DNA of 26,238 nt from a virus (lineage: Duplodnaviria > Heunggongvirae > Uroviricota > Caudoviricetes). Made by a program: the position numbers and the translations under genes. Positions 1,712 to 11,734 of this stretch are shown piece after piece. Under the pieces are notes generated by a model. It was not told where the DNA came from and searched no databases. It saw nothing but the letters and a program-made list of their open reading frames with translations. Positions within the stretch are counted from its first letter, which is position 1, and each line of letters starts with the position of its first letter. Where the stretch lies: the IMG/VR virus record IMGVR_UViG_2728369593_000006, one strand, 5' to 3'.

Positions 1712-2275
1712 ATGAGGCTAACCGTGGGTAAGCATCACTGGAAAGTAGAAAAACAGCCTGAGTGGTACGTGAAAGCTGTCAGAAAAACTATCGCGGCGTT
1801 GCCGGGGGGTTACGCTGAAGCTGCTGAGTGGCTGGATGTAACAGAGAACGCTTTATTCAACCGCCTTCGTGCAGATGGCGATCAGATTTTCCCGCTGGGA
1901 TGGGCAATGATTTTACAGCGCGCGGCTGGCACTCACTACATTGCGGATGCTGTCGCACAGTCTGCTGGTGGGGTGTTTGTATCGCTTCCTGAAATTGAGG
2001 AAGTAGAGAACGCCGATATAAACCAGCGCCTGCTGGAAGTCATCGAACAGATCGGGAGTTACTCAAAGCAGATTCGTTCGGCAATCGAAGATGGGGTAGT
2101 GGAGCCACACGAGCAGACAGCAATTAATGATGAGTTGTATCTGTCAATTTCGAAGCTCCAGGAGCATGCAGCACTGGTCTACAAAATCTTTTGCGCTCCA
2201 GAAAAGAGTGACGCCCGCGAGTGTGCAGCTCCGGGCGTCGTGGCGTGTCGTGACTGTGGAGAAACTAACGCATGA
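1712..2275 (+). CDS. CII-like regulatory protein (CP76-type phage CII family)
   Basis: 187 aa directly downstream of cro in the rightward operon; family recalled from memory, not searched. Confidence 0.45.
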   Translation: MRLTVGKHHWKVEKQPEWYVKAVRKTIAALPGGYAEAAEWLDVTENALFNRLRADGDQIFPLGWAMILQRAAGTHYIADAVAQSAGGVFVSLPEIEEVENADINQRLLEVIEQIGSYSKQIRSAIEDGVVEPHEQTAINDELYLSISKLQEHAALVYKIFCAPEKSDARECAAPGVVACRDCGETNA

Positions 2276-3108
2276 ACAGTTTAACGGCAAATAACCGTTT
2301 GTCGCAACAGCTGGTGGTCAGCGTCGCTGAACACCTGTTGTTACGGCATGAATGCAGATTACCAAATCACCTGGCTGTAAGTAACCACAGAGAACTTTAC
2401 CTGACTGTGGGGGGCGAGTTGTGCAGGAACTTAACCGCTGGTTTCGTGACGGAAGAGGACTTTATGTTCATGTTATTCGTTGGGAGCCAGAAACACAGCG
2501 CGTTATCTATCTTCGCAAAGACTACCCGCATGAGTGCTTTAGTCCTTTGTGGAAATTCAGGCGTGATTTTGTTGAGTGTGAAGGACCACCAGCACATTGA
2601 TTCTGCCATTCCGGGACGTTACACTGTTCAGGCACCTTATAAAGCGGGTGCCGGGATTGGCGTCCTGGAATTGATCAAGGCGATATATGACGCGCCAGCG
2701 TCTTTTTTATCGTCCGCATTTGCTCACATCAAAGTTATGGTGGGCTGGGCGGGGGCATCGAAAGATGCGCCGGTTTCCTTGATCACCGGTTACGCCAACC
2801 CCGTTCAGTTCACCACCAGCGAAATTGGCGTTTCCGGTGGTGGAAGTATTTCACCGATCAAGGAGGCTGCCATCATGGCTACTGTCCCAGCCCTCACTCG
2901 TCTGAATGATGAAGACTTACATAAACTCAGTTATGTAACAACTGCACTACGTGCTCTGCGCAAGGTAACTCTTTCGGATCCGCAGGCGCATCAGGTTTTG
3001 GTAGAAACCCTTCTTAACTTGCAGGCTGAACGTATTCGTCTGGCGGATAAGGCTAATTTTCATATTCACCGTCTCCTGAATATCAGCGGAGGGCATCGTC
3101 ATGCTTAA
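2272..3108 (+). CDS. Hypothetical early-operon protein
   Basis: 278-aa ORF whose ATG overlaps the upstream stop (ATGA), indicating translational coupling; no family recognised. Confidence 0.4.
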   Translation: MNSLTANNRLSQQLVVSVAEHLLLRHECRLPNHLAVSNHRELYLTVGGELCRNLTAGFVTEEDFMFMLFVGSQKHSALSIFAKTTRMSALVLCGNSGVILLSVKDHQHIDSAIPGRYTVQAPYKAGAGIGVLELIKAIYDAPASFLSSAFAHIKVMVGWAGASKDAPVSLITGYANPVQFTTSEIGVSGGGSISPIKEAAIMATVPALTRLNDEDLHKLSYVTTALRALRKVTLSDPQAHQVLVETLLNLQAERIRLADKANFHIHRLLNISGGHRHA

Positions 3109-3337
3109 TCCGTTGATCCTCAATATTTGCCGTTTGCTTCAGCGTAAAAAAACATCAATTCCTACAGTTGGGCAGTGGTACACCACGCCTGCAGGGCATG
3201 TTCTACGTGTTAGCCTGGTTGACCGTGAATGTCAGAAGGTGATTTGTGAACCGCTGGGCCGTAATTACCGCGTCAGTATGCCGCTTATAACCTTTCGCTC
3301 CGGAAAAAACATGAAGCATCTCGGAGGTGCAGCATGA
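3101..3337 (+). CDS. Hypothetical small protein
   Basis: 78-aa ORF with start and stop overlapping its neighbours in the coupled operon. Confidence 0.35.
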   Translation: MLNPLILNICRLLQRKKTSIPTVGQWYTTPAGHVLRVSLVDRECQKVICEPLGRNYRVSMPLITFRSGKNMKHLGGAA

Positions 3338-4218
3338 GTATGGAGCTGATGGTTAAAGCGATGAAAATTCGAGTGGGTAATCCATTGCGAAAACTGGTTC
3401 TGATCAAGCTGGCTGATAATGCCAGCGATCAGGGTGAGTGCTGGCCCAGCTACCAGCATATTGCTGACCAGTGCGAGATTAGCAAACGTTCTGTGATGAA
3501 TCATATTGCGGCCCTTTGTGAGTCCGGGCTGGTAAAAAAAGTCACCCGGAAAGGTGAAAAAGGTAACTCAAGTAATATCTATCTCCTTCATCTGGATGGT
3601 GCAGGAGATTCACTAGGGGGTAGTGCAAATAATTCACTATCTGGTGCAGCAAATTCACCAGGTAGTGCAGGAGATTCACTAGGGGGTAGTGCAAATAATT
3701 CACTATCTGGTGCAGCAAATTCACCAGGTAGTGCAGGAGTTGCACTAGGGGGTAGTGCAGGAGATTCACCCAGAACCAGTCACTCTTTTGAACCAGTCAA
3801 AGAACCAGTCAATGAACCAATAGCTGTTGGTGCATCTGCTGATGAGTCTGTGCGAGTTCGTTCAAACCGACCGGAATACTCTCCGGAGTTTGAGCAGGCA
3901 TGGCTGGCATATCCCAAACGTGCTGGTGGCAATTCAAAATCTGCAGCCTTCAAAGCCTGGAAAGCCCGTTTGAATGAGGGGGTAAACCCCGAAACCATGC
4001 TGGAAGGTGTGAAACGCTATGCGGGCTGGGTATCTGCGATGGGTAACAGCGGCACACAATTTGTGAAACAGGCTGTCACGTTCTTTGGTCCGGATCGTCA
4101 TTTCGAAGAATCCTGGGAAGTTCCTGCGGTATCTGCAGCCAGACGTGAGGACCCGTACTTCAAAGCCAGTTACGACAACGTGGACTACAGCCAGATCCCG
4201 GCAGGATTCAGGGGGTGA
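3334..4218 (+). CDS. Replication initiator (O-like): N-terminal winged-helix origin-binding domain, repeat linker, DnaT-like C-terminal domain
   Basis: N-terminus typical of phage replisome-organiser wHTH proteins; C-terminus ends ...SQIPAGFRG, resembling the C-terminus of primosomal protein DnaT as I recall it; internal tandem DNA repeats (iterons). Confidence 0.65.
   Translation: MSMELMVKAMKIRVGNPLRKLVLIKLADNASDQGECWPSYQHIADQCEISKRSVMNHIAALCESGLVKKVTRKGEKGNSSNIYLLHLDGAGDSLGGSANNSLSGAANSPGSAGDSLGGSANNSLSGAANSPGSAGVALGGSAGDSPRTSHSFEPVKEPVNEPIAVGASADESVRVRSNRPEYSPEFEQAWLAYPKRAGGNSKSAAFKAWKARLNEGVNPETMLEGVKRYAGWVSAMGNSGTQFVKQAVTFFGPDRHFEESWEVPAVSAARREDPYFKASYDNVDYSQIPAGFRG
3598..3780. repeat. 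Intragenic iteron array (candidate origin of replication): about 8 copies of an 18-24 bp unit GTGCA(G/A)NA(A/G)ATTCAC(T/C)A arranged as a 66-bp higher-order repeat, followed by 3 copies of GAACCAGTCA (3782-3820)
   Basis: Read directly; the 66-bp unit GTAGTGCAGGAGATTCACTAGGGGGTAGTGCAAATAATTCACTATCTGGTGCAGCAAATTCACCAG occurs twice exactly, then a degenerate third copy; analogous to the lambda ori inside gene O. Confidence 0.6.
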
Positions 4219-4220
4219 TC

Positions 4221-4709
4221 ATGAGTCTTTTGAATGAAGTTCAGAAATTCATTGAAGCCCATCCGGGGTGTACTTCCGGAGACATTGCGGATGCTTTTGC
4301 AGGTTACTCACGGCAGCGCGTTCTGCAGTCAGCAAGCAAGTTACGTCAGAGTGGGCGTGTGGCTCACCGTTGTGAAGGGGATACACGCAGACATTTCCCG
4401 CGCCAGACAAAGATATCGCCGGAGGCGGAACGGCAACCAGTTCGTGAAACCAGACCTGTGCGCAATTTCTATGTCGGCACTAACGACCCGCGGGAGATTT
4501 TATGCCTGACCCGCCAGGCTGAAGAACTGGAGTCCAGGGGCTTATACCGTCGTGCTGCAACGGTGTGGATGGCGGCATTCCGTGAAAGCCACTCCCAGCC
4601 AGAACGAAACAATTTTCTGGCGCGTCGTGAGCAGTGTTTACGGAAAAGCAGCAAGCGCGCTGTATCGGGTGATGAGTGGTATCTGTCAGGGAATTACGTG
4701 GGGGCTTAA
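4221..4709 (+). CDS. Putative transcriptional regulator: N-terminal wHTH, C-terminal PerC/ANR-like domain
   Basis: C-terminal motif LESRGLYRRAATVW...RREQCL resembles the PerC family (GLWRRAA...RRNYCL) as recalled from memory; start at ATG 4221 (ORF track begins at GTG 4215). Confidence 0.4.
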   Translation: MSLLNEVQKFIEAHPGCTSGDIADAFAGYSRQRVLQSASKLRQSGRVAHRCEGDTRRHFPRQTKISPEAERQPVRETRPVRNFYVGTNDPREILCLTRQAEELESRGLYRRAATVWMAAFRESHSQPERNNFLARREQCLRKSSKRAVSGDEWYLSGNYVGA

Positions 4710-5362
4710 TGAGTAATAAATATTGCCAGGAGCTGGTGGAACTGCGGAACAAACCAGCCCATGAACTGAAGGAAGTGGGCGATCAGTGGCGCACGCCGGA
4801 CAACATTTTCTGGGGAATTAACACCCTGTTTGGTCCGTTTGTTCTGGATCTGTTCACTGACGGTGATAACGCCAAATGTGCTGCGTATTACACGGCGGAA
4901 GACAACGCGCTGGCGCATGACTGGTCAGAACGCCTTGCGGAGCTTAAAGGTGCTGCCTTTGGAAATCCCCCATACAGCCGCGCCAGTCAGCATGAGGGGC
5001 AATACATCACCGGCATGCGTTACATCATGAAGCATGCCAGTGCCATGCGTGATAAGGGCGGGCGCTATGTTTTCCTGATCAAAGCTGCCACCAGCGAAGT
5101 GTGGTGGCCGGAAGATGCAGATCATATTGCTTTTATTCGCGGGCGTATTGGTTTTGAACTGCCTGCCTGGTTTATCCCGAAGGATGAGAAGCAGGTGCCG
5201 ACAGGCGCTTTCTTCGCTGGTGCTATTGCTGTTTTCGACAAGACCTGGAAGGGACCGGCAATCAGCTACATCGGGCGCGATGAACTTGAGGCATGTGGTG
5301 AGGCGTTTCTGGCGCAGGTTCGCCAGCAGGCGGAAAAGCTGGTCAGGGAGATGGCGGCATGA
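4709..5362 (+). CDS. Phage Dam-type DNA N6-adenine methyltransferase
   Basis: NPPY catalytic motif (FGNPPYS); length and position typical of the lambdoid nin-region Dam methylase; ATG overlaps the upstream stop (TAATG). Confidence 0.75.
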   Translation: MSNKYCQELVELRNKPAHELKEVGDQWRTPDNIFWGINTLFGPFVLDLFTDGDNAKCAAYYTAEDNALAHDWSERLAELKGAAFGNPPYSRASQHEGQYITGMRYIMKHASAMRDKGGRYVFLIKAATSEVWWPEDADHIAFIRGRIGFELPAWFIPKDEKQVPTGAFFAGAIAVFDKTWKGPAISYIGRDELEACGEAFLAQVRQQAEKLVREMAA

Positions 5363-5685
5363 CGACGTTAACTCAATGCCAGCAGCAGGTGCTGGATATG
5401 CTGATTTCTTATCAGAAAGAACGTGGCTTCCCGCCAACCAATCAGGAGGTGGCAACCATGCTGGGATACCGTTCGGTGAATGCAGCGGTGGAGCATCTTC
5501 GCGCACTGGAGAAAAAAGGCGTCATCACGATAAAGCGTGGCGTGGCCCGGGGGATCACGCTTCATACCGCAGTGAAGGACGACGACAGCGAAGCGGTCGG
5601 TATCATCCGCGCACTGCTTGCCGGTGAGGAGAACGCCAGGTTGCGTGCAGCCCACTGGTTACATGAGAGGGGCTTGAAAGTATGA
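5359..5685 (+). CDS. LexA N-terminal DNA-binding-domain homologue without a peptidase domain
   Basis: 108 aa; LTQCQQQVLDMLISYQKERGFPPTNQEVATMLGYRSVNAAVEHLRALEKKGVI parallels E. coli LexA residues about 1-70 ([53 protein letters not shown]). Confidence 0.65.
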   Translation: MTTLTQCQQQVLDMLISYQKERGFPPTNQEVATMLGYRSVNAAVEHLRALEKKGVITIKRGVARGITLHTAVKDDDSEAVGIIRALLAGEENARLRAAHWLHERGLKV

Positions 5686-6072
5686 AGTTGATCCTTCCTT
5701 TCCCGCCCAGTGTGAACACGTACTGGCGACACCCCAACAAAGGGGCATTTGCTGGTAAGAGCCTGATAAGCGAGGCGGGGCGAAAATTTCAGAGCGCGGC
5801 GTGCGCAGCAATAGTTGAGCAGTTACGTCGTCTGCCGAAACCAACGTCGGCACCTGCTTCAGTGGAGATCGTGTTGTTTCCGCCGGATAACCGGATCCGT
5901 GATCTGGACAACTATAACAAGGCGCTGTTTGACGTCCCTGACCCCAGCGGGTGTGTGGGAAGACGACAGACAGGTGAAAAGAATGCTGGTGGAGTGGGGA
6001 CCGGTTATCCCGAAAGGGAAGGTCGAGATCACTATCAGTAAGTACGAGAAAACGGCGGGTGCAGCCGCCTGA
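5682..6072 (+). pseudogene. rusA: RusA Holliday-junction resolvase, interrupted by a +1 frameshift at about 5934-5940
   Basis: Frame A (5682..5936) ends ...DLDNYNKALFDV then reads nonsense; frame B continues LTPAGVWEDDRQVKRMLVEWGPVIPKGKVEITISKYE to the stop at 6072, matching the RusA C-terminus; junction is at a CCC run (GTCCCTG). Confidence 0.7.
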
Positions 6073-6091
6073 TTAAGAGGAGAAACGAAGT

Positions 6092-6902
6092 ATGAATAAT
6101 CTGATGGTCATTGATGGTATTGAAGTTCGTCGTGATGCTTTATGGACGTTACAGCCTGAACGATCTGCATCGCGCAGCAGTAGCATCTGGTGCAAATGCC
6201 AGAACCAAGGAGCCAGGAAAGTTTCTTTCCAGCCAACAAACTGTTGAGCTTGTTCATGAATTGACCAACACCCAGAATTTGGGTGTTGACCCGGTGAGTG
6301 TGATTCATGGGGGAAATGAACGGGGAACGTATGTCTGCAAGGAACTGGTGTATGCCTATGCAATGTGGATCAGCCCGTCATTCCATCTGAAGGTGATCCG
6401 TACTTTCGATATGGTAACCAGCGCACCGGAAAAATTATCCGGGCAGGCTGCTGACAAGATGCAGGCTGGTGTGATTCTGCTGGACTTTATGCGCAGGGAG
6501 TTAAACCTGTCTAACTCTTCAGTGCTTGGGGCCTGTCAGAAACTCCAGGAGGCTGTTGGCTTACCGAATCTGGCACCGCGCTATGCCATTGATGCTCCTG
6601 CTGATGCACACGATGGCTCAAGTCGCCCGACACTGTCACTGAGTGCACTGCTGAAACAGTATGGTATCCGCCTGACGGCTAATCAGGCATATCACCAGAT
6701 GGTGAAGCTGGGGATCGTCGAGCAGCGCGAACGATACAGCCGTACCGCGATTAACAACATCAAAAAATTCTGGTCGCTGACAGCGAAAGGCTGCATGTTC
6801 GGCAAGAACATCACCAGTCCCGCAAATCCGCGCGAGACGCAGCCGCATTTCTTCGAATCCCGATTCCCTGAGCTGTTAAAGCTGCTCGATACCGTACATT
6901 GA
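6092..6902 (+). pseudogene. KilA-N domain protein, N-terminus interrupted by a +1 frameshift at about 6137-6143
   Basis: Strong RBS AAGAGGAG before ATG 6092 gives MNNLMVIDGIEVRRDA then stops after 51 codons; the long ORF (from 6111, other frame) carries the rest of the KilA-N domain (YGRYSLNDLHRAA...[33 protein letters not shown]); junction is at a TTT run. Confidence 0.55.
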
Positions 6903-6903
6903 G

Positions 6904-7900
6904 GTGACCGTGAGAGCACTACTGACCCCTGAAATTGCCCCGCGTATGGGGATCGTATTGTTCAGACCAGGTTCAGAGCTGATGCCCCTGTTTATGCAGG
7001 GGCGTGTCCTGCTGGAGCCTGAGCCGGAGCATTATTCATCTTTCGCCAGTGGTGCCGTTCCCGCGGCATCACAACCGCTGGCGGATGATCCTGTCGTTCG
7101 GGCCGTGTTCCGTAATGAGGCAGTGATTCGTCGTGCTGGTGGCGTGGAATGTCTTGAAAGCTGGTTACTTCGTAAAAAAGGCTGCCAGTGGCCTCATTCC
7201 GACTGGCACAGCGAGAACATGACCACAATGCGACACGCGCCGGGCGCAATCCGTCTGTGCTGGCACTGTGATAACCAGCTGCGCGATCAGTTCACGGAAC
7301 GGCTGGAATCAATGGCAACGGATAACTGTACCCGCTGGGTGTTGTCTGTTGTGCGTCGGGATCTCGGTTTTGATGACAGTCACGTTGTGACAATTGCCGG
7401 AACTGTGCTGGTGGCTGATTCGTAATGACCTGGCGGATGCCTTACCGGAAAGTGCAGCCCGTAAGGCACTGAGATTACCAAAGCCTGTTGTGCCGTCTGT
7501 CACCCGGGAAAGTGACCTTGTGCCTTCGGTTCCTGCCACCAGCATCATCCAGGATAAAGCGAAAAAGGTGCTGGCGCTGAAAGTGGATCCGGAGTCGCCG
7601 GAGTCTTTTATGTTACGCCCAAAACGTCGCCGCTGGGTTAATGAAAAGTACACGCGCTGGGTTAAGACACAGCCGTGTGCATGTTGTGGAAAGCCCGCTG
7701 ATGATCCCCACCACCTGATAGGTCACGGTCAGGGTGGAATGGGAACAAAAGCGCATGACCTTTTTGTGTTGCCTTTGTGCAGAAAGCATCACGACGAGCT
7801 GCATGCGGATACCGTGGCATTTGAAGAGAAGTATGGCTCCCAGCTGGAGCTGATATTTCGTTTTATCGATCGTGCGCTGGCAATTGGCGTGCTGGCCTGA
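6904..7900 (+). pseudogene. DUF968/YdfU-like protein with HNH-like C-terminal motif, possibly split by a +1 frameshift near 7418-7426 (alternatively two adjacent genes)
   Basis: ORFs 6904..7425 and 7394..7900 lie in different frames and overlap; combined length (about 340 aa) is what I recall for YdfU-type DUF968 proteins; C-terminal CxxC...HH...H motif. Confidence 0.4.
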
Positions 7901-7917
7901 TTTTGTGGAGAAAGTTG

Positions 7918-8283
7918 ATGCGTGATATTCAAATGGTTCTTGAACATTGGGGGGCATGGGTGGCAAATAATCACGAGGATGTCACTTGGTCGTCTATTGC
8001 TGCAGGATTTAAAGGACTAATCCCTTCAAAAGTAAAATCCCGCCCGCAATGTTGTGACGATGACGCGATGATCATTTGTGGATGCATGGCTCGCCTGAAA
8101 AAGAACAACAGCGATTTGCACGATTTATTAGTGGATTATTATGTAGGTGGTATGACGTTTATGGCGCTTGCCCGTAAACATGGGCGTTCTGATTGCTGGG
8201 TTGGGCGTTTATTGCAAAAGGCTGAAGGTGTAGTTGATGGCATGTTAATGATGTTAGAAATTGAGCTAGAGATGGATCGTTAG
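7918..8283 (+). CDS. Q: Late-gene antiterminator Q (phage 82 / QuuD type)
   Basis: [33 protein letters not shown]...[33 protein letters not shown] closely matches the E. coli DLP12 QuuD sequence as recalled; GTGGAG RBS 8 nt upstream. Confidence 0.8.
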
Positions 8284-8325
8284 AAGACCTCTTATTGAGG
8301 GGGTAATTGAATCAGTTTAATGTGT

Positions 8326-8356
8326 GGGGAGTCGATTTATTCTCCCCATTTTATTT
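8326..8356 (+). terminator. Rho-independent terminator about 45 nt downstream of Q (candidate tR')
   Basis: Stem GGGGAG/CTCCCC (8326-8331 / 8342-8347) followed by ATTTTATTT; U-rich tail is on the plus strand only. Confidence 0.5.
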
Positions 8357-8367
8357 AATTAATTTAC

Positions 8368-8814
8368 TTAAGGTTTTAATTCATCAAGACGTTGTTGGAT
8401 AGTGTTTTTGCTTGCGTTGTCTGTTATAGCCATTTGTTGTACTTGCCCCATTGCCATTTGAGTTTCCATCCACATATCGGCCCACACTTTTGTATCGTTA
8501 TTAACTTGAGCGATAGTAAATTTGACTTTTGATACCGGGGTTGTTGAATAGGCATTGCCGATTAACATTTGTCCAAAAACAGCAGACCCGCCTTCCAGTT
8601 CTTTACCACATATAACACTGCTGTTATCCGCGTTGTAAATTATCAACCCTCTACTATTGCAGTAATTCACAAGGGCATCTTTGACTTTATCTTTTGTCGT
8701 ATTTTGATAAACCCCCTCAGGTTTTCCTGATTGAGTTTTCTTTATCAATGGTACGGAAGAAGTACAACCTGAAATGATAGTTGCGCTAAGTAATAATACA
8801 GTCATTTTATTCAT
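8368..8814 (-). CDS. Lipoprotein of unknown function (moron in the Q-lysis interval)
   Basis: 148 aa; N-terminal signal peptide with lipobox LLSATIISG-C; AT-rich coding sequence; opposite orientation to the flanking phage operons. Confidence 0.6.
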   Translation of the reverse strand: MNKMTVLLLSATIISGCTSSVPLIKKTQSGKPEGVYQNTTKDKVKDALVNYCNSRGLIIYNADNSSVICGKELEGGSAVFGQMLIGNAYSTTPVSKVKFTIAQVNNDTKVWADMWMETQMAMGQVQQMAITDNASKNTIQQRLDELKP

Positions 8815-9084
8815 GTTTCTTATCCATTGTTAAGGGCATACCCACACAATTATTTTTATTGGAGATGAATAATCAACCGTTTACAATCGTAAAAAATCAA
8901 ATATGCTGTTAAGAGTGGTTACTTCGCCACACAACTTAAACCCGCCGCTGAGCGGTTTTTTTGTACCTGTAAACCTGGAGCAGTACAGTAAACACGCTGG
9001 TGGTCGTGAATACTGACTTTTTATCTTGCTGGCTTTTTAGACAAGAGTTATTGGTATGTCATGTTAACCAGAAGGGAAAAAGAC

Positions 9085-9288
9085 ATGCTAAAACAGCAAG
9101 ATATGACAGAAACCGCCGCAGCAGTCCTTCATTTCTTACCTGCTGACAAGTGGGTAACGCCACGCATGATGACGAGAACTACCGGAGTAAGCGAAGCCCG
9201 GTGCCAGTTAATACTGACTCAGTTAGTTCTGGCGGGTCTGGCGAAGGATAACGGCGGGTACGGGAATAAATTCAGACGCTGCCAGTAA
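9085..9288 (+). CDS. Hypothetical small wHTH-like protein (ORF track start 9061; ATG 9085 has the better RBS)
   Basis: 67-75 aa ORF; AAGGGAAA about 7 nt upstream of ATG 9085; no family recognised. Confidence 0.3.
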   Translation: MLKQQDMTETAAAVLHFLPADKWVTPRMMTRTTGVSEARCQLILTQLVLAGLAKDNGGYGNKFRRCQ

Positions 9289-9438
9289 TGGCGGTTTCCT
9301 GCTGTGAAAATGGGCGGCTGGTGGGTGTTGGTAGCACCTGCCAGCCATTCGCTCATGCTTACTGGTCACAAGCGAACCACGGCCCACTGCTTTAGCGCAA
9401 AAGCAGAGTGAGCCTACCAGAGTTACGCTTACAGATCC

Positions 9439-10491
9439 ATGAAAAATACTGTAAAAATAAACAGTGTTGATTTAATCAACGCTGATTGCCTGCATTTTAT
9501 TCAGTCCCTGCCTGATGATTCCATTGACCTGATTGTTACCGATCCGCCGTACTTCAAGGTGAAACCCAACGGCTGGGACAATCAGTGGAAAGGGGACGAA
9601 GATTACCTTAAGTGGCTGGACCACTGTCTGGCCCAGTTCTGGCGGGTGTTAAAACCTGCCGGAAGCCTTTACCTGTTCTGTGGGCATCGCCTGGCATCTG
9701 ATATTGAGATCATGATGCGTGAACGTTTCAACGTGCTTAACCATATCATCTGGGCGAAGCCGTCCGGACGTTGGAATGGGTGTAATAAAGAAAGTCTGCG
9801 CGCATATTTTCCTGCCACAGAGCGCGTTCTGTTTGCTGAACATTACCAGGGGCCATATCGCGGCAAAAGTGACGGCTATGCAGCAAAAGAAAGGGAACTC
9901 AAACAGCACATAATGGCACCGCTGATATCGTATTTCAGGGATGCTCGTGCCGAACTGGGTATAACGGCAAAACAAATTGCCGAAGCCACAGGTAAGAAAA
10001 ATATGGTTTCCCACTGGTTTGGTGCCAGTCAGTGGCAGTTGCCGAATGAGGCTGACTATCGGAAGTTACAGGCACTGTTTTCCCGTATAGCGGCAGAGAA
10101 GTTTCAGGAACAACAACTGGAACAACCACACCACCAGCTGGTGGCATCTTATGATTCACTGAATCGCAAATATTCTGAATTGCTGGATGAGTTTAAATCT
10201 CTCCGGCGCTATTTCTCCGTATCAGTCTCCGTGCCTTATACCGATGTCTGGATGCATAAACCCGTTCAGTTCTACCCGGGTAAACATCCGTGTGAGAAAC
10301 CTGCGGATATGCTCCGGCAAATAATCAATGCCAGTAGTCGACCTGGTGATCTGGTTGCTGATTTTTTTATGGGATCCGGTTCCACAATAAAAGCAGCAAT
10401 GGCGCTGGGGCGTCGGGCCTTAGGTGTTGAGCTTGAGTCAGAGCGGTTTAACCAGACAGTGAAAGAGATAAACGAGCTGGTGGGGAAATAA
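9439..10491 (+). CDS. Orphan DNA methyltransferase (N6-adenine/N4-cytosine family, beta-class motif order)
   Basis: 350 aa; motif IV TDPPYF near the N-terminus and AdoMet-binding motif I DFFMGSGST near the C-terminus; no adjacent restriction endonuclease gene. Confidence 0.8.
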   Translation: MKNTVKINSVDLINADCLHFIQSLPDDSIDLIVTDPPYFKVKPNGWDNQWKGDEDYLKWLDHCLAQFWRVLKPAGSLYLFCGHRLASDIEIMMRERFNVLNHIIWAKPSGRWNGCNKESLRAYFPATERVLFAEHYQGPYRGKSDGYAAKERELKQHIMAPLISYFRDARAELGITAKQIAEATGKKNMVSHWFGASQWQLPNEADYRKLQALFSRIAAEKFQEQQLEQPHHQLVASYDSLNRKYSELLDEFKSLRRYFSVSVSVPYTDVWMHKPVQFYPGKHPCEKPADMLRQIINASSRPGDLVADFFMGSGSTIKAAMALGRRALGVELESERFNQTVKEINELVGK

Positions 10492-10497
10492 TCTGGT

Positions 10498-10522
10498 GGC
10501 CACGTAGGTGGCCTTTTTATTT
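10498..10522 (+). terminator. Rho-independent terminator after the methyltransferase gene
   Basis: Stem GGCCAC/GTGGCC with GTAG loop (10498-10513) followed by TTTTTATTT. Confidence 0.5.
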
Positions 10523-10557
10523 CCATTACACAGCACCCGCATCTGCGAGGTGGGGTT

Positions 10558-10773
10558 ATGAAATCCATGGATAAGTTAACAACGGGTGTCGCCTATGGCA
10601 CCTCAGCAGGTAGTGCCGGGTACTGGTTTTTACAGTTGCTCGATAAAGTCACGCCCTCACAGTGGGCGGCAATAGGTGTGCTGGGTAGTCTGGTATTTGG
10701 CTTGCTGACGTATCTGACAAACCTTTATTTCAAGATTAAAGAAGATAAGCGTAAGGCTGCGAGAGGTGAATAA
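10558..10773 (+). CDS. S: Class II pinholin (phage 21 S21 type)
   Basis: 71 aa; [71 protein letters not shown], near-identical in pattern to S21; dual-start MKSM motif. Confidence 0.8.
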
Positions 10774-11270
10774 TGTCGCCATCATTACGCAAGGCTGTTG
10801 CTGCTGCTATTGGTGGTGGGGCTGTTGCCATAGCGTCTGTGCTCATCACTGGTCCGAGTGGTGACGATGGCCTGGAAGGTGTCAGCTACATACCATACAA
10901 AGATATCGTTGGCGTATGGACTGTATGTCACGGACACACCGGAAAAGACATCATGCTAGGTAAAACGTATACCGAAGCAGAATGCAAAGCCCTCCTGAAT
11001 AAAGACCTTGCCACGGTCGCCAGACAAATTAACCCGTACATCAAAGTCGATATACCGGAAACAACGCGCGGCGCTCTTTACTCGTTCGTCTACAACGTGG
11101 GTGCTGGCAATTTCAGAACATCGACGCTTCTTCGCAAAATAAACCAGGGCGATATCAAAGGCGCATGTGACCAGCTACGTCGCTGGACATACGCTGGCGG
11201 TAAGCAATGGAAAGGCCTGATGACTCGTCGTGAGATTGAGCGTGAAGTCTGTTTGTGGGGGCAACAATGA
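10773..11270 (+). CDS. R: SAR endolysin (phage 21 R21-type lysozyme, GH24)
   Basis: 165 aa; N-terminal signal-anchor-release segment ([18 protein letters not shown]) and lysozyme core; ATG overlaps the holin stop. Confidence 0.8.
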
Positions 11271-11734
11271 GCAGAGTAACCGCGATTATCTCCGCTCTGG
11301 TTATCTGCATCATCGTCTGCCTGTCGTGGGCGGTCAATCATTACCGTGATAACGCCATCGCCTACAAAGAACAGCGTGATAAAAAAGTCAGTGAGCTGAA
11401 GCAGGCGACCGCCACCATCGCTGACATGCAGCAGCGTCAGCGTGATGTTGCTGCGATCGATGCAAAATACACGAAGGAGTTAGCCGATGCGAAAACTGAA
11501 AATGAAACTCTGCGCGCTGATGTTGCCGCTGGTCGTAAGCGCCTGCGGGTCAATGCCAGTTGCTCCGCAGCCGTGCGTGAAGCCACCGGACCCACCAGCA
11601 TGGATAATGCAACCAGCCCCCGACTGGCAGACACCGCTGAACGGGATTATTTCACCCTCAGAGAACGGTTGATGACGATGCAGAAGCAACTGGAAGGGGC
11701 GCAGGAATATATCCGCACCCAGCGCATTAAGTAG
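11267..11734 (+). CDS. Rz: Rz inner-membrane spanin
   Basis: N-terminal transmembrane segment followed by coiled-coil-prone sequence; ATG 11267 overlaps the endolysin stop; Rz1 is embedded in the +1 frame. Confidence 0.7.
11487..11672 (+). CDS. Rz1: Rz1 outer-membrane lipoprotein spanin, embedded within Rz
   Basis: Lipobox LPLVVSA-C followed by a proline-rich mature region, entirely inside Rz in another frame. Confidence 0.65.

Follow-up and report, generated by a model that had tools for sequence, protein, structure and literature searches.

Why would a prophage carry two DNA methyltransferases, and in which phase of the phage's life would the second be made? The question is raised by virus record IMGVR_UViG_2728369593_000006 of IMG/VR (Caudoviricetes). 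The whole of this 26,238-nucleotide (nt) stretch, called the window here, comes from a lambdoid Escherichia coli prophage, of which it covers the right arm and head/tail region. It encodes a Dam-family enzyme (methylase 1) and a second enzyme (methylase 2) in the slot between the antiterminator gene Q and the lysis genes. Judging from sequence and from published work on its relatives, we consider it likely that methylase 2 is a late enzyme of the M.EcoGII family which pre-protects progeny DNA, rather than one which imprints the lysogen. The features on which this reading turns are as follows.

4709-5362, + strand: methylase 1, phage Dam-family N6-adenine DNA methyltransferase (217 amino acids (aa), GNPPY; nin/early-right region)
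7903-8283, + strand: late antiterminator Q of the Q933/Stx2-phage type (126 aa; PF06530, E 4e-51)
8880-8907, + strand: candidate late promoter pR' (-35 TTTACA, 16-nt spacer, -10 TATGCT; promoter scan)
8942-8963, + strand: intrinsic terminator tR' (GCCGCTGAGCGGT then T7; terminator scan), left mosaic boundary of the cassette
9025-9061, + strand: conserved non-coding block upstream of the winged-helix gene (CTTGCTG, N17, TATTGG, then GTATGTCA)
9085-9288, + strand: open reading frame (ORF) 67, a stand-alone winged-helix protein (67 aa; phrog_331)
9278-9295, + strand: P0 hairpin, whose GUAA loop contains the stop codon of ORF67; a U/C-rich tract follows at 9296-9306 (read from the sequence)
9303-9438, + strand: conserved structured 5' leader of methylase 2 (about 135 nt, within the 150-nt spacer 9289-9438)
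9439-10491, + strand: methylase 2, M.EcoGII-family beta-class N6-adenine methyltransferase (350 aa)
10498-10520, + strand: strong intrinsic terminator between methylase 2 and the holin gene (GGCCACGTAGGTGGCC then a T-run; terminator scan), right boundary of the cassette

Identity of the two methylases

Methylase 2 matches PF01555 (N6_N4_Mtase) with an E-value of 2.2e-42 over profile positions 1-220 of 221. It carries IVTDPPYFKV in its N-terminal part (TDPPYF at residues 34-39) and ADFFMGSGST in its C-terminal part (FFMGSGS at residues 309-315), and with DPPY N-terminal and FxGxG C-terminal it has the beta-class motif order. Its counterparts in phages cdtI and Ayreon, putative DNA methylases, have the identical protein sequence, and those of mEp460 and SfV (orf48) are 98-99.7% identical; among complete E. 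coli genomes, 1266 of 5426 carry the gene. More importantly, it is collinear with M.EcoGII with one or two gaps, recognition region and charged linker included. Identical residues occupy 281 of 351 positions (about 80%) in this comparison, and 310 of 351 (about 88%) in that with the biochemically active reconstructed ancestor Anc291; both counts are approximate, because the two reference sequences were machine-read from the PDF of Table S1 of PMC11551740 with a few errors. No solved structure is closer to methylase 2 than the generic beta-class enzymes.

M.EcoGII and M.EcoGI, which come from prophages of E. coli O104:H4 C227-11, resemble methylase 2 in being beta-class PF01555 enzymes of 349-350 aa with DPPY and FxGxG motifs. 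M.EcoGII further shares the central recognition region with its charged linker, the prophage location and the lack of an endonuclease, whereas the allele in the window is of the cdtI/Ayreon/mEp460/SfV subtype. The enzymes of phage 1720a-02 and of an E. albertii prophage are identical to M.EcoGII at 326-331 of 349 positions, and they are accompanied by the same winged-helix gene and leader. By these sequence criteria methylase 2 is a member of the known M.EcoGII family and not a new enzyme, and it probably acts on adenine almost or entirely irrespective of sequence. For M.EcoGII itself, methylation of adenine in every context has been reported, as has activity on RNA and DNA:RNA hybrids (PMC5778455), and the reconstructed ancestors of the clade all modify DNA and RNA independently of any motif (PMC11551740).

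Methylase 1 is a different protein. Its ORF extends over 4676-5362 with a conserved Met at 4709, and its translation contains AAFGNPPYS. It is a full-length member of the phage Dam family with the (D/N)PPY motif and scores above the curated cut-offs for PF05869 Dam (E 1.1e-45; 155.7 bits, cut-off 28.1) and for the phage N-6-adenine methyltransferase family TIGR01712 (255.3 bits, cut-off 97.05); a PADLOC profile match covers residues 1-217 of 217. Like the phage Dam-family methylases M.EcoVT2Dam of 933W and M.EcoGV, it has NPPY, its place in the nin region is that seen in Stx phages, and we saw no notable difference from them. Its specificity is presumably GATC, as in its family, and it would be a separate GATC-type methylase expressed earlier than methylase 2.

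A sequence-only reading of this DNA had described two unrelated methylases in one prophage, the second an orphan in the late region. The two enzymes lie where it placed them (GNPPY of PF05869 at 4709-5362; DPPY...FxGxG of PF01555 at 9439-10491) and share no significant similarity (BLASTP E 0.078, motifs unaligned), and the Q-to-lysis slot is indeed late-region. The orphan status also stands: Pfam, NCBIfam and PADLOC scans of the neighbouring ORFs revealed no restriction-endonuclease-like protein near methylase 2, and nuclease-type matches among the flanking ORFs were limited to the usual lambdoid RusA, DUF968/HNH and terminase-associated proteins. The pairing is not unusual. Both methylases occur together in at least 37 phage records (the overlap of the 60 best records for each methylase), including SfV, cdtI, mEp460, 1720a-02, thirteen Stx2c phages, Stx2a_1447, phiNP, LLS, Hafnia phage yong2 and Providencia and Klebsiella phages. 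Related combinations are found in a Plesiomonas prophage (a Dam-domain protein with a PF01555 enzyme) and in a Salmonella prophage (a C5 methylase with a PF01555 enzyme). The pairing of a Dam with an M.EcoGII-like enzyme is a standard, already known lambdoid design. The two-methylase finding itself thus matters little, as the arrangement is common and the enzyme family has been characterised.

Proposed late expression and the rival explanations

Q of the window is 81% identical to Q of the Stx2 phage phiON-2011, and 8880-8981 aligns with the post-Q region of phiON-2011 and many other Stx phages. In Stx phages pR' is constitutive and its transcript stops at tR' unless Q acts (PMC7547250). The equivalent of tR' is annotated as a terminator in SfV and Ayreon, and so is the terminator at 10498-10520. 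Between tR' and methylase 2, the P0 hairpin with its U/C-rich tract looks like a further terminator. A GC-rich hairpin followed by a U-rich or U/C-rich tract stands directly 5' of the leader in most loci, according to a by-eye reading of the fold outputs, and clear terminators are present there in 1720a-02, Yersinia and Hafnia; the automatic terminator tally at this position (16 of 57) is confounded by long-range pairs in the minimum-energy folds. The promoter scan revealed no promoter-like site within 9289-9438. Methylase 2 is prophage-borne and placed behind pR'/tR' and the P0 hairpin. Since the same layout recurs elsewhere, we read it as a putative Q-dependent late gene, which would account for silence in lysogens and speaks against lysogen imprinting.

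This reading agrees with what has been reported for the relatives. Constitutive expression of M.EcoGII slows growth and the native lysogen does not express it; neither M.EcoGII nor M.EcoGI gives detectable methylation in lysogens, and the authors suggested that induction turns M.EcoGII on as a means of overcoming restriction (Murray et al. 2018, PMC5778455). Likewise, homologues of M.EcoGI and M.EcoGII in Shiga toxin-producing E. coli (STEC) O111 left no detectable motif in lysogen methylomes (PMC6602927).

Taken together, we propose the following scheme. A small cassette, made up of winged-helix gene, hairpin, structured leader, methylase and terminator, would have methylase 2 as its main cargo; judging by its position, the cassette follows the Q-dependent late promoter/terminator and precedes the lysis genes. 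Transcripts that start at pR' in the lysogen would end at tR' and any leakage would meet the second hairpin, so that no methylase 2 is made. After induction, RNA polymerase modified by Q would pass every terminator, and methylase 2 would be produced along with the lysis and morphogenesis proteins, its conserved leader setting, at a guess, the translation level or the mRNA stability of a toxic enzyme. By homology, the enzyme would methylate adenines of replicating and packaged phage DNA, and progeny genomes could reach the next host pre-protected against those Type I, II and III systems that are blocked by N6-methyladenine (m6A).

The sequence-only reading had offered two roles for dual methylation. 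Protection against restriction is the accepted reading of the family (PMC5778455), whereas imprinting of the lysogen's methylome fared badly. That methylase 2 is expressed in the lysogen and acts as an epigenetic regulator of the host seems improbable to us, even though the orphan methylases Dam and CcrM do regulate host genes and a -35-like TTGCTG with a TAYNNG at 17-nt spacing lies upstream of the winged-helix gene. These two elements belong to the block at 9025-9061, which is kept from Escherichia to Xenorhabdus and Photorhabdus, always 3' of an intrinsic terminator, with the consensus CTTGCTG, short variable hairpin, CAGAGTTAY, then TGTRTGTCA; the spacing of exactly 17 nt is kept as well. 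The block might function as an operator or an RNA element, or as a promoter that is weak or needs an activator. Two terminator-type hairpins are nonetheless found between it and the methylase, which has no promoter-like site of its own in the leader, and the relatives are silent in lysogens and costly when expressed constitutively (PMC5778455; PMC6602927). About as improbable is a lytic-phase action on host DNA or RNA, in which, for example, hyper-methylation would disturb Dam-dependent repair, replication or transcription, or RNA would acquire m6A. M.EcoGII does methylate RNA and DNA:RNA hybrids and harms cells (PMC5778455; PMC11551740), and late expression would coincide with host shutdown; its RNA activity is, however, about 100-fold below that on DNA (V0 0.12 versus 11.12; PMC11551740, supplementary table), and lysis follows late gene expression so soon that there would be little to gain.

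Somewhat less remote, and still unlikely, is that methylase 2 is sequence-specific or strongly biased by context and protects against particular restriction systems only. Many of the positions at which it differs from M.EcoGII fall in the central target-recognition region and the linker, and a site-specific relative with a similar fold exists, but methylase 2 is nearer to Anc291, which is not site-specific, and every reconstructed ancestor of the clade is motif-free (PMC11551740). The least probable alternative, which we give very little credence, is that ORF67 and methylase 2 are left over from a Type II restriction-modification (R-M) system that was regulated by a controller and lost its endonuclease. 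A small DNA-binding protein is indeed encoded upstream, and PADLOC files methylase 2 under Type II methylases. Among about 160 related loci, however, no endonuclease occurs in the cassette, which always lies within a phage late operon; ORF67 has a winged helix rather than an XRE-type helix-turn-helix (HTH) and no HTH_3 match, and the repeats upstream of it are unconserved.

Several points weigh against the late, pre-protecting role that we prefer. Methylase 2 differs from M.EcoGII at about 20% of positions (about 70 substitutions, counted on the machine-read sequences), and the site-specific relative M.PflMI has a similar overall fold (PMC11551740), so that its non-specificity is an extrapolation. 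Late-only expression is suggested by sequence signals and by the methylomes of other strains, and if the 9025-9061 block is a weak promoter, the winged-helix gene at least might be expressed in lysogens. Finally, the literature assumes an anti-restriction role for the family but does not demonstrate it.

The winged-helix gene and the structured leader

A small winged-helix ORF immediately upstream of methylase 2 had been suggested as a controller, with a binding palindrome to be sought in 9061-9438. The fold stands. The mechanical ORF spans 9061-9288, and homologue alignment sets the start at 9085 (MLKQQDMT...). The AlphaFold model (mean predicted local distance difference test, pLDDT, 87.3) has an H-H-H-beta-beta winged-helix fold, for which Foldseek returned Z-alpha, IclR, TrmBL2 (TrmB) and SelB winged helices with template modelling (TM) scores of up to 0.82 and weak E-values, as expected for only 67 residues. 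The recognition helix RCQLILTQL is invariant among homologues, a few of which carry PF17782 or bear a TrmB-family name; ORF67 itself has no Pfam (HTH_3 included) or NCBIfam match. The order of the two genes also stands, and the 150-nt spacer between them, part of the interval proposed for the search, holds a structured RNA leader and not a protein-binding palindrome.

The controller role did not survive. Like the controller (C) proteins of Type II R-M systems, ORF67 is a small protein with a DNA-binding fold encoded just upstream of a methylase. Unlike them, it is a winged helix and not an XRE-type HTH, it comes without C-box or endonuclease, and a terminator-like hairpin and a 135-nt structured leader separate the two genes. 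The search for a controller-protein palindrome in 8815-9445 returned only two direct 11-nt repeats upstream of ORF67 (at 9013 and 9029; not conserved, for example, in 1720a-02) and two spacer hairpins, which are leader helices P2 and P4; in 9061-9438 no such palindrome was found. Of 80 genome loci, drawn from many genera, 57 have ORF67 directly 5' of the methylase, and so do 70 of 75 virus contigs, which had been selected via the RNA motif. In the other 23 genome loci it was not detectable within 600 bp upstream of the methylase, and PhiR5_1 has ORF67 without methylase and leader. We therefore reject ORF67 as a dedicated partner of the methylase, since these loci show each gene alone: the linkage is real but not obligatory, and ORF67 is a frequent yet dispensable companion.

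The leader is more constant. Its helices, all on the + strand, are the following.

9311-9315/9382-9386: P1, closing a three-way junction with P2 and P3
9316-9327/9335-9346: P2
9348-9353/9371-9376: P3
9387-9393/9400-9406: P4
9409-9413/9427-9431: P5, followed by AGAUCC-AUG

The alignment of 55 loci was made with MAFFT, which is blind to structure; RNAalifold gives P1 around two hairpins, and P4 and P5 were added by inspection. Standard pairs fill 84% of the cells, compared with 30-41% when the partners are slid by 1-3 columns, and 21 of 40 pairs are changed on both sides, compared with 5-11 after sliding. None of 500 shuffles attained the observed values, and an alignment fitted to the covariance model yields similar pairing numbers. 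Helices P1-P4 are strongly and P5 is moderately supported. Compensatory changes include C-G to A-U or U-A in P3 (19 sequences), G-C to A-U in P1 of Mixta and U-A to C-G in P4, and the P2 stem is wholly rewritten in Hafnia, Ewingella and Yersinia. In the window the leader folds with a minimum free energy of -60.2 kcal/mol (z -2.6).

The leader keeps its length and its place before the methylase. From the ORF67 stop to the methylase ATG there are 147-154 nt in most Enterobacteriaceae-type loci and 76-101 nt in Xenorhabdus/Photorhabdus, and 51 of the 53 long-form loci with an exact anchor have 143-146 nt between GTG(R)AAATGGGCG and nine bases past the ATG. In all 53 of 53 loci compared, identity to the window is higher in the leader than in the methylase coding sequence (means 84.5% versus 73.8%), and the leader persists in loci that lack ORF67. 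The covariance model finds exactly one match per locus, on the methylase strand only, and none in PhiR5_1. When IMG/VR was scanned with the motif pattern alone, 81 leader occurrences were recovered in 80 loci, and after 79 of them comes a methylase homologue, with its ATG 51-52 nt (46 nt in one case) past the motif match; one of the two exceptions ends at the edge of its locus and the other precedes only a 4-codon ORF. In total, about 57 genome loci and about 80 viral contigs have the leader, and the genome loci represent more than 20 named genera.

Neither Rfam 15 (9289-9438 matched no family, whether at gathering score or at E<=10) nor a search of the region for tRNAs and known RNA families identified the leader, and we found no description of it in the literature. 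It appears to be an undescribed structured RNA. As in riboswitches and the protein-binding translational operators of T4 gene 32 and the regA targets, a conserved and covarying multi-helix structure, confined to the coding strand, immediately precedes the start codon in one specific gene family. It differs from known cis-regulatory leaders in having no Rfam 15 match and no terminator/anti-terminator pair after the structure.

The start codon of methylase 2 has no Shine-Dalgarno (SD) sequence of the GGAGG type. The sequence around it, UGAUC(U/C)AUG, is near-invariant and appears to be the complement of GAUCA/GGAUC, which adjoins the anti-SD core of 16S rRNA on its 5' side. As for occlusion of the ribosome site by the leader, the mean unpaired probability from -12 to +8 is 0.44 with the native and 0.50 with a shuffled leader, so that predicted start-site accessibility is not clearly changed in either direction. 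We also rejected a small ORF in the spacer, where the invariant AUG opens frames of 3 to more than 47 codons and the frame shifts between loci, and a trp-leader-like MGGWW peptide, whose WW codons are just the Chi sequence (GCTGGTGG) of the P2 stem and are missing from other genera. Two pseudoknot candidates were set aside as well, AUCAG of the P5 loop with CUGAU before the AUG (unfavourable loop geometry) and 5' UGUGA with UCACA in the P3 loop; the positions concerned are invariant.

How, then, might the leader act? Our guess is that it governs the translational dosing of a toxic methylase, or the stability of its mRNA, perhaps via a bound factor. More tentatively, and we rate this as a minority possibility, an undescribed RNA family could be the obligatory leader of M.EcoGII-type genes across Enterobacterales prophages and serve as a sensor or throttle for the toxic enzyme. 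Possible modes are binding of S-adenosylmethionine or S-adenosylhomocysteine, of the winged-helix protein, or of the methylase itself (autoregulation, perhaps through m6A in the leader). If this were true, the leader and the flanking terminators would form a self-contained, tightly gated anti-restriction module.

M.EcoGII is a widely used research tool that is harmful to cells, and we found no account in the literature of how prophages silence and then dose it. The gain is a testable architecture of pR'/tR', winged-helix gene, hairpin, conserved structured leader, methylase and terminator. The structured leader, as a candidate RNA family, and the terminator-bracketed cassette are apparently new here.

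Two variants of the leader were observed on the side. In Xenorhabdus/Photorhabdus loci a shorter form, about 76-101 nt upstream of the methylase, keeps only GTGAAATGG, the P2 hairpin and CCATTCGCC and matches the full-length model weakly (15-27 bits). One viral contig (L159, 344-422 and 3330-3408, - strand) has two leaders about 3 kb apart, each followed by a methylase homologue.

The cassette and its prophage context

The cassette is shared widely. In SfV (orf47-orf48), cdtI, Ayreon and mEp460 it is 96-100% identical and occupies the same slot (Q, terminator, small ORF, methylase, terminator, lysis genes), and these phages also share the Dam-family gene with the window. The window differs from them in Q type, holin type and an extra reverse lipoprotein gene, which is the usual lambdoid mosaicism. 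Their records annotate the cassette genes merely as hypothetical protein or DNA methylase, and the order Q, terminator, small ORF, methylase, terminator, S can be read from the annotation of SfV and Ayreon. The same layout with different Q and lysis genes is found in 1720a-02 and in Salmonella and Plesiomonas prophages. Homology begins at about 8906-8939 (cdtI, mEp460, SfV and Stx2c phages) and ends at about 10552 (SfV and mEp460_4F5), that is, at tR' and just before S, which points to a mobile cassette bounded by terminators. Over 8300-11300 the window is 98-99.5% identical to PhiR40_1, cdtI, vB_EcoS-569R4, Ayreon and mEp460, and 96% identical to SfV.

A decayed cassette was seen in Erwinia sp. 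P7711 (locus L006, 4001-5029). It consists of the winged-helix gene, a leader that is still intact (134 bits) and a methylase that is truncated, and it adjoins a Q remnant and a type VI secretion system Hcp/Ntox44 pair.

The surrounding genes of the window are arranged as follows.

Early part, + strand: CII-like, Ash-family and replication genes, a PerC-like gene and the Dam-family methylase
Middle part, + strand: LexA-like, RusA, KilA-N and DUF968 genes, then Q, then the methylase 2 region
8368-8814, - strand: reverse lipoprotein gene (148 aa, signal MNKMTVLLLSATIISGC, lipobox ISGC; phrog_3152, no known function)
10558-11734, + strand: lysis cassette of P21-type holin S (10558-10773; PF04971), lysozyme R (10773-11270; PF00959) and Rz (11255-11734; PF03245)
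Late part, + strand: terminase and structural genes, after the lysis cassette

The lipoprotein gene is inserted between Q and pR', and Q thereby lies about 600 bp from its target promoter. It has a minus-strand promoter-like site of its own (8833-8804, 10 of 12 matches) and is missing from most methylase-carrying phages; among the phage records listed, it is shared by PhiR40_1 and PhiR55_1 only. It is an independent insert outside the methylase cassette. We rejected it as a defence or restriction gene, as 8368-8814 has no PADLOC, Pfam or NCBIfam match.

A short pR'-to-tR' transcript is predicted at 8908-8963 (+ strand), in a region homologous to the one that yields the small RNA StxS in Stx phages (PMC7547250). 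By analogy, this non-Stx prophage may make an StxS-like RNA in lysogens.

Further upstream, Rfam matches to isrK (64 bits; 2632-2708, + strand) and to the C4 antisense RNA (82 bits; 2733-2820, + strand) adjoin each other. Both lie within the mechanical ORF 2272-3108, in which the Ash domain begins only at residue 117. The pair looks like an isrK/c4 antirepressor control region of the P1/Gifsy-1 type, and the annotated start of the ORF is probably too far upstream.

Chi occurs in 17 copies in the window, compared with 1.2 expected by chance, and 11 of the 17 are on the + strand. The sites span 1964-11599 (for example 8996-9003, 9317-9324, 10131-10144 and 10476-10483) and are confined to the early-right, late-regulatory and lysis part, while the structural genes between 12 and 26 kb have no copy. 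Within the non-coding parts of the cassette two copies are invariant, one of them forming the 5' arm of leader helix P2, and a palindromic double Chi (CCACCAGCTGGTGG) inside the methylase 2 gene codes for HHQLV. Chi-rich lambdoid phages without a Rec module, in which Chi is clustered terminally, have been described by Zheng et al. 2025 (PMC12315714). The pattern in the window is consistent with that class, and phage LLS of the same study likewise carries both methylases.

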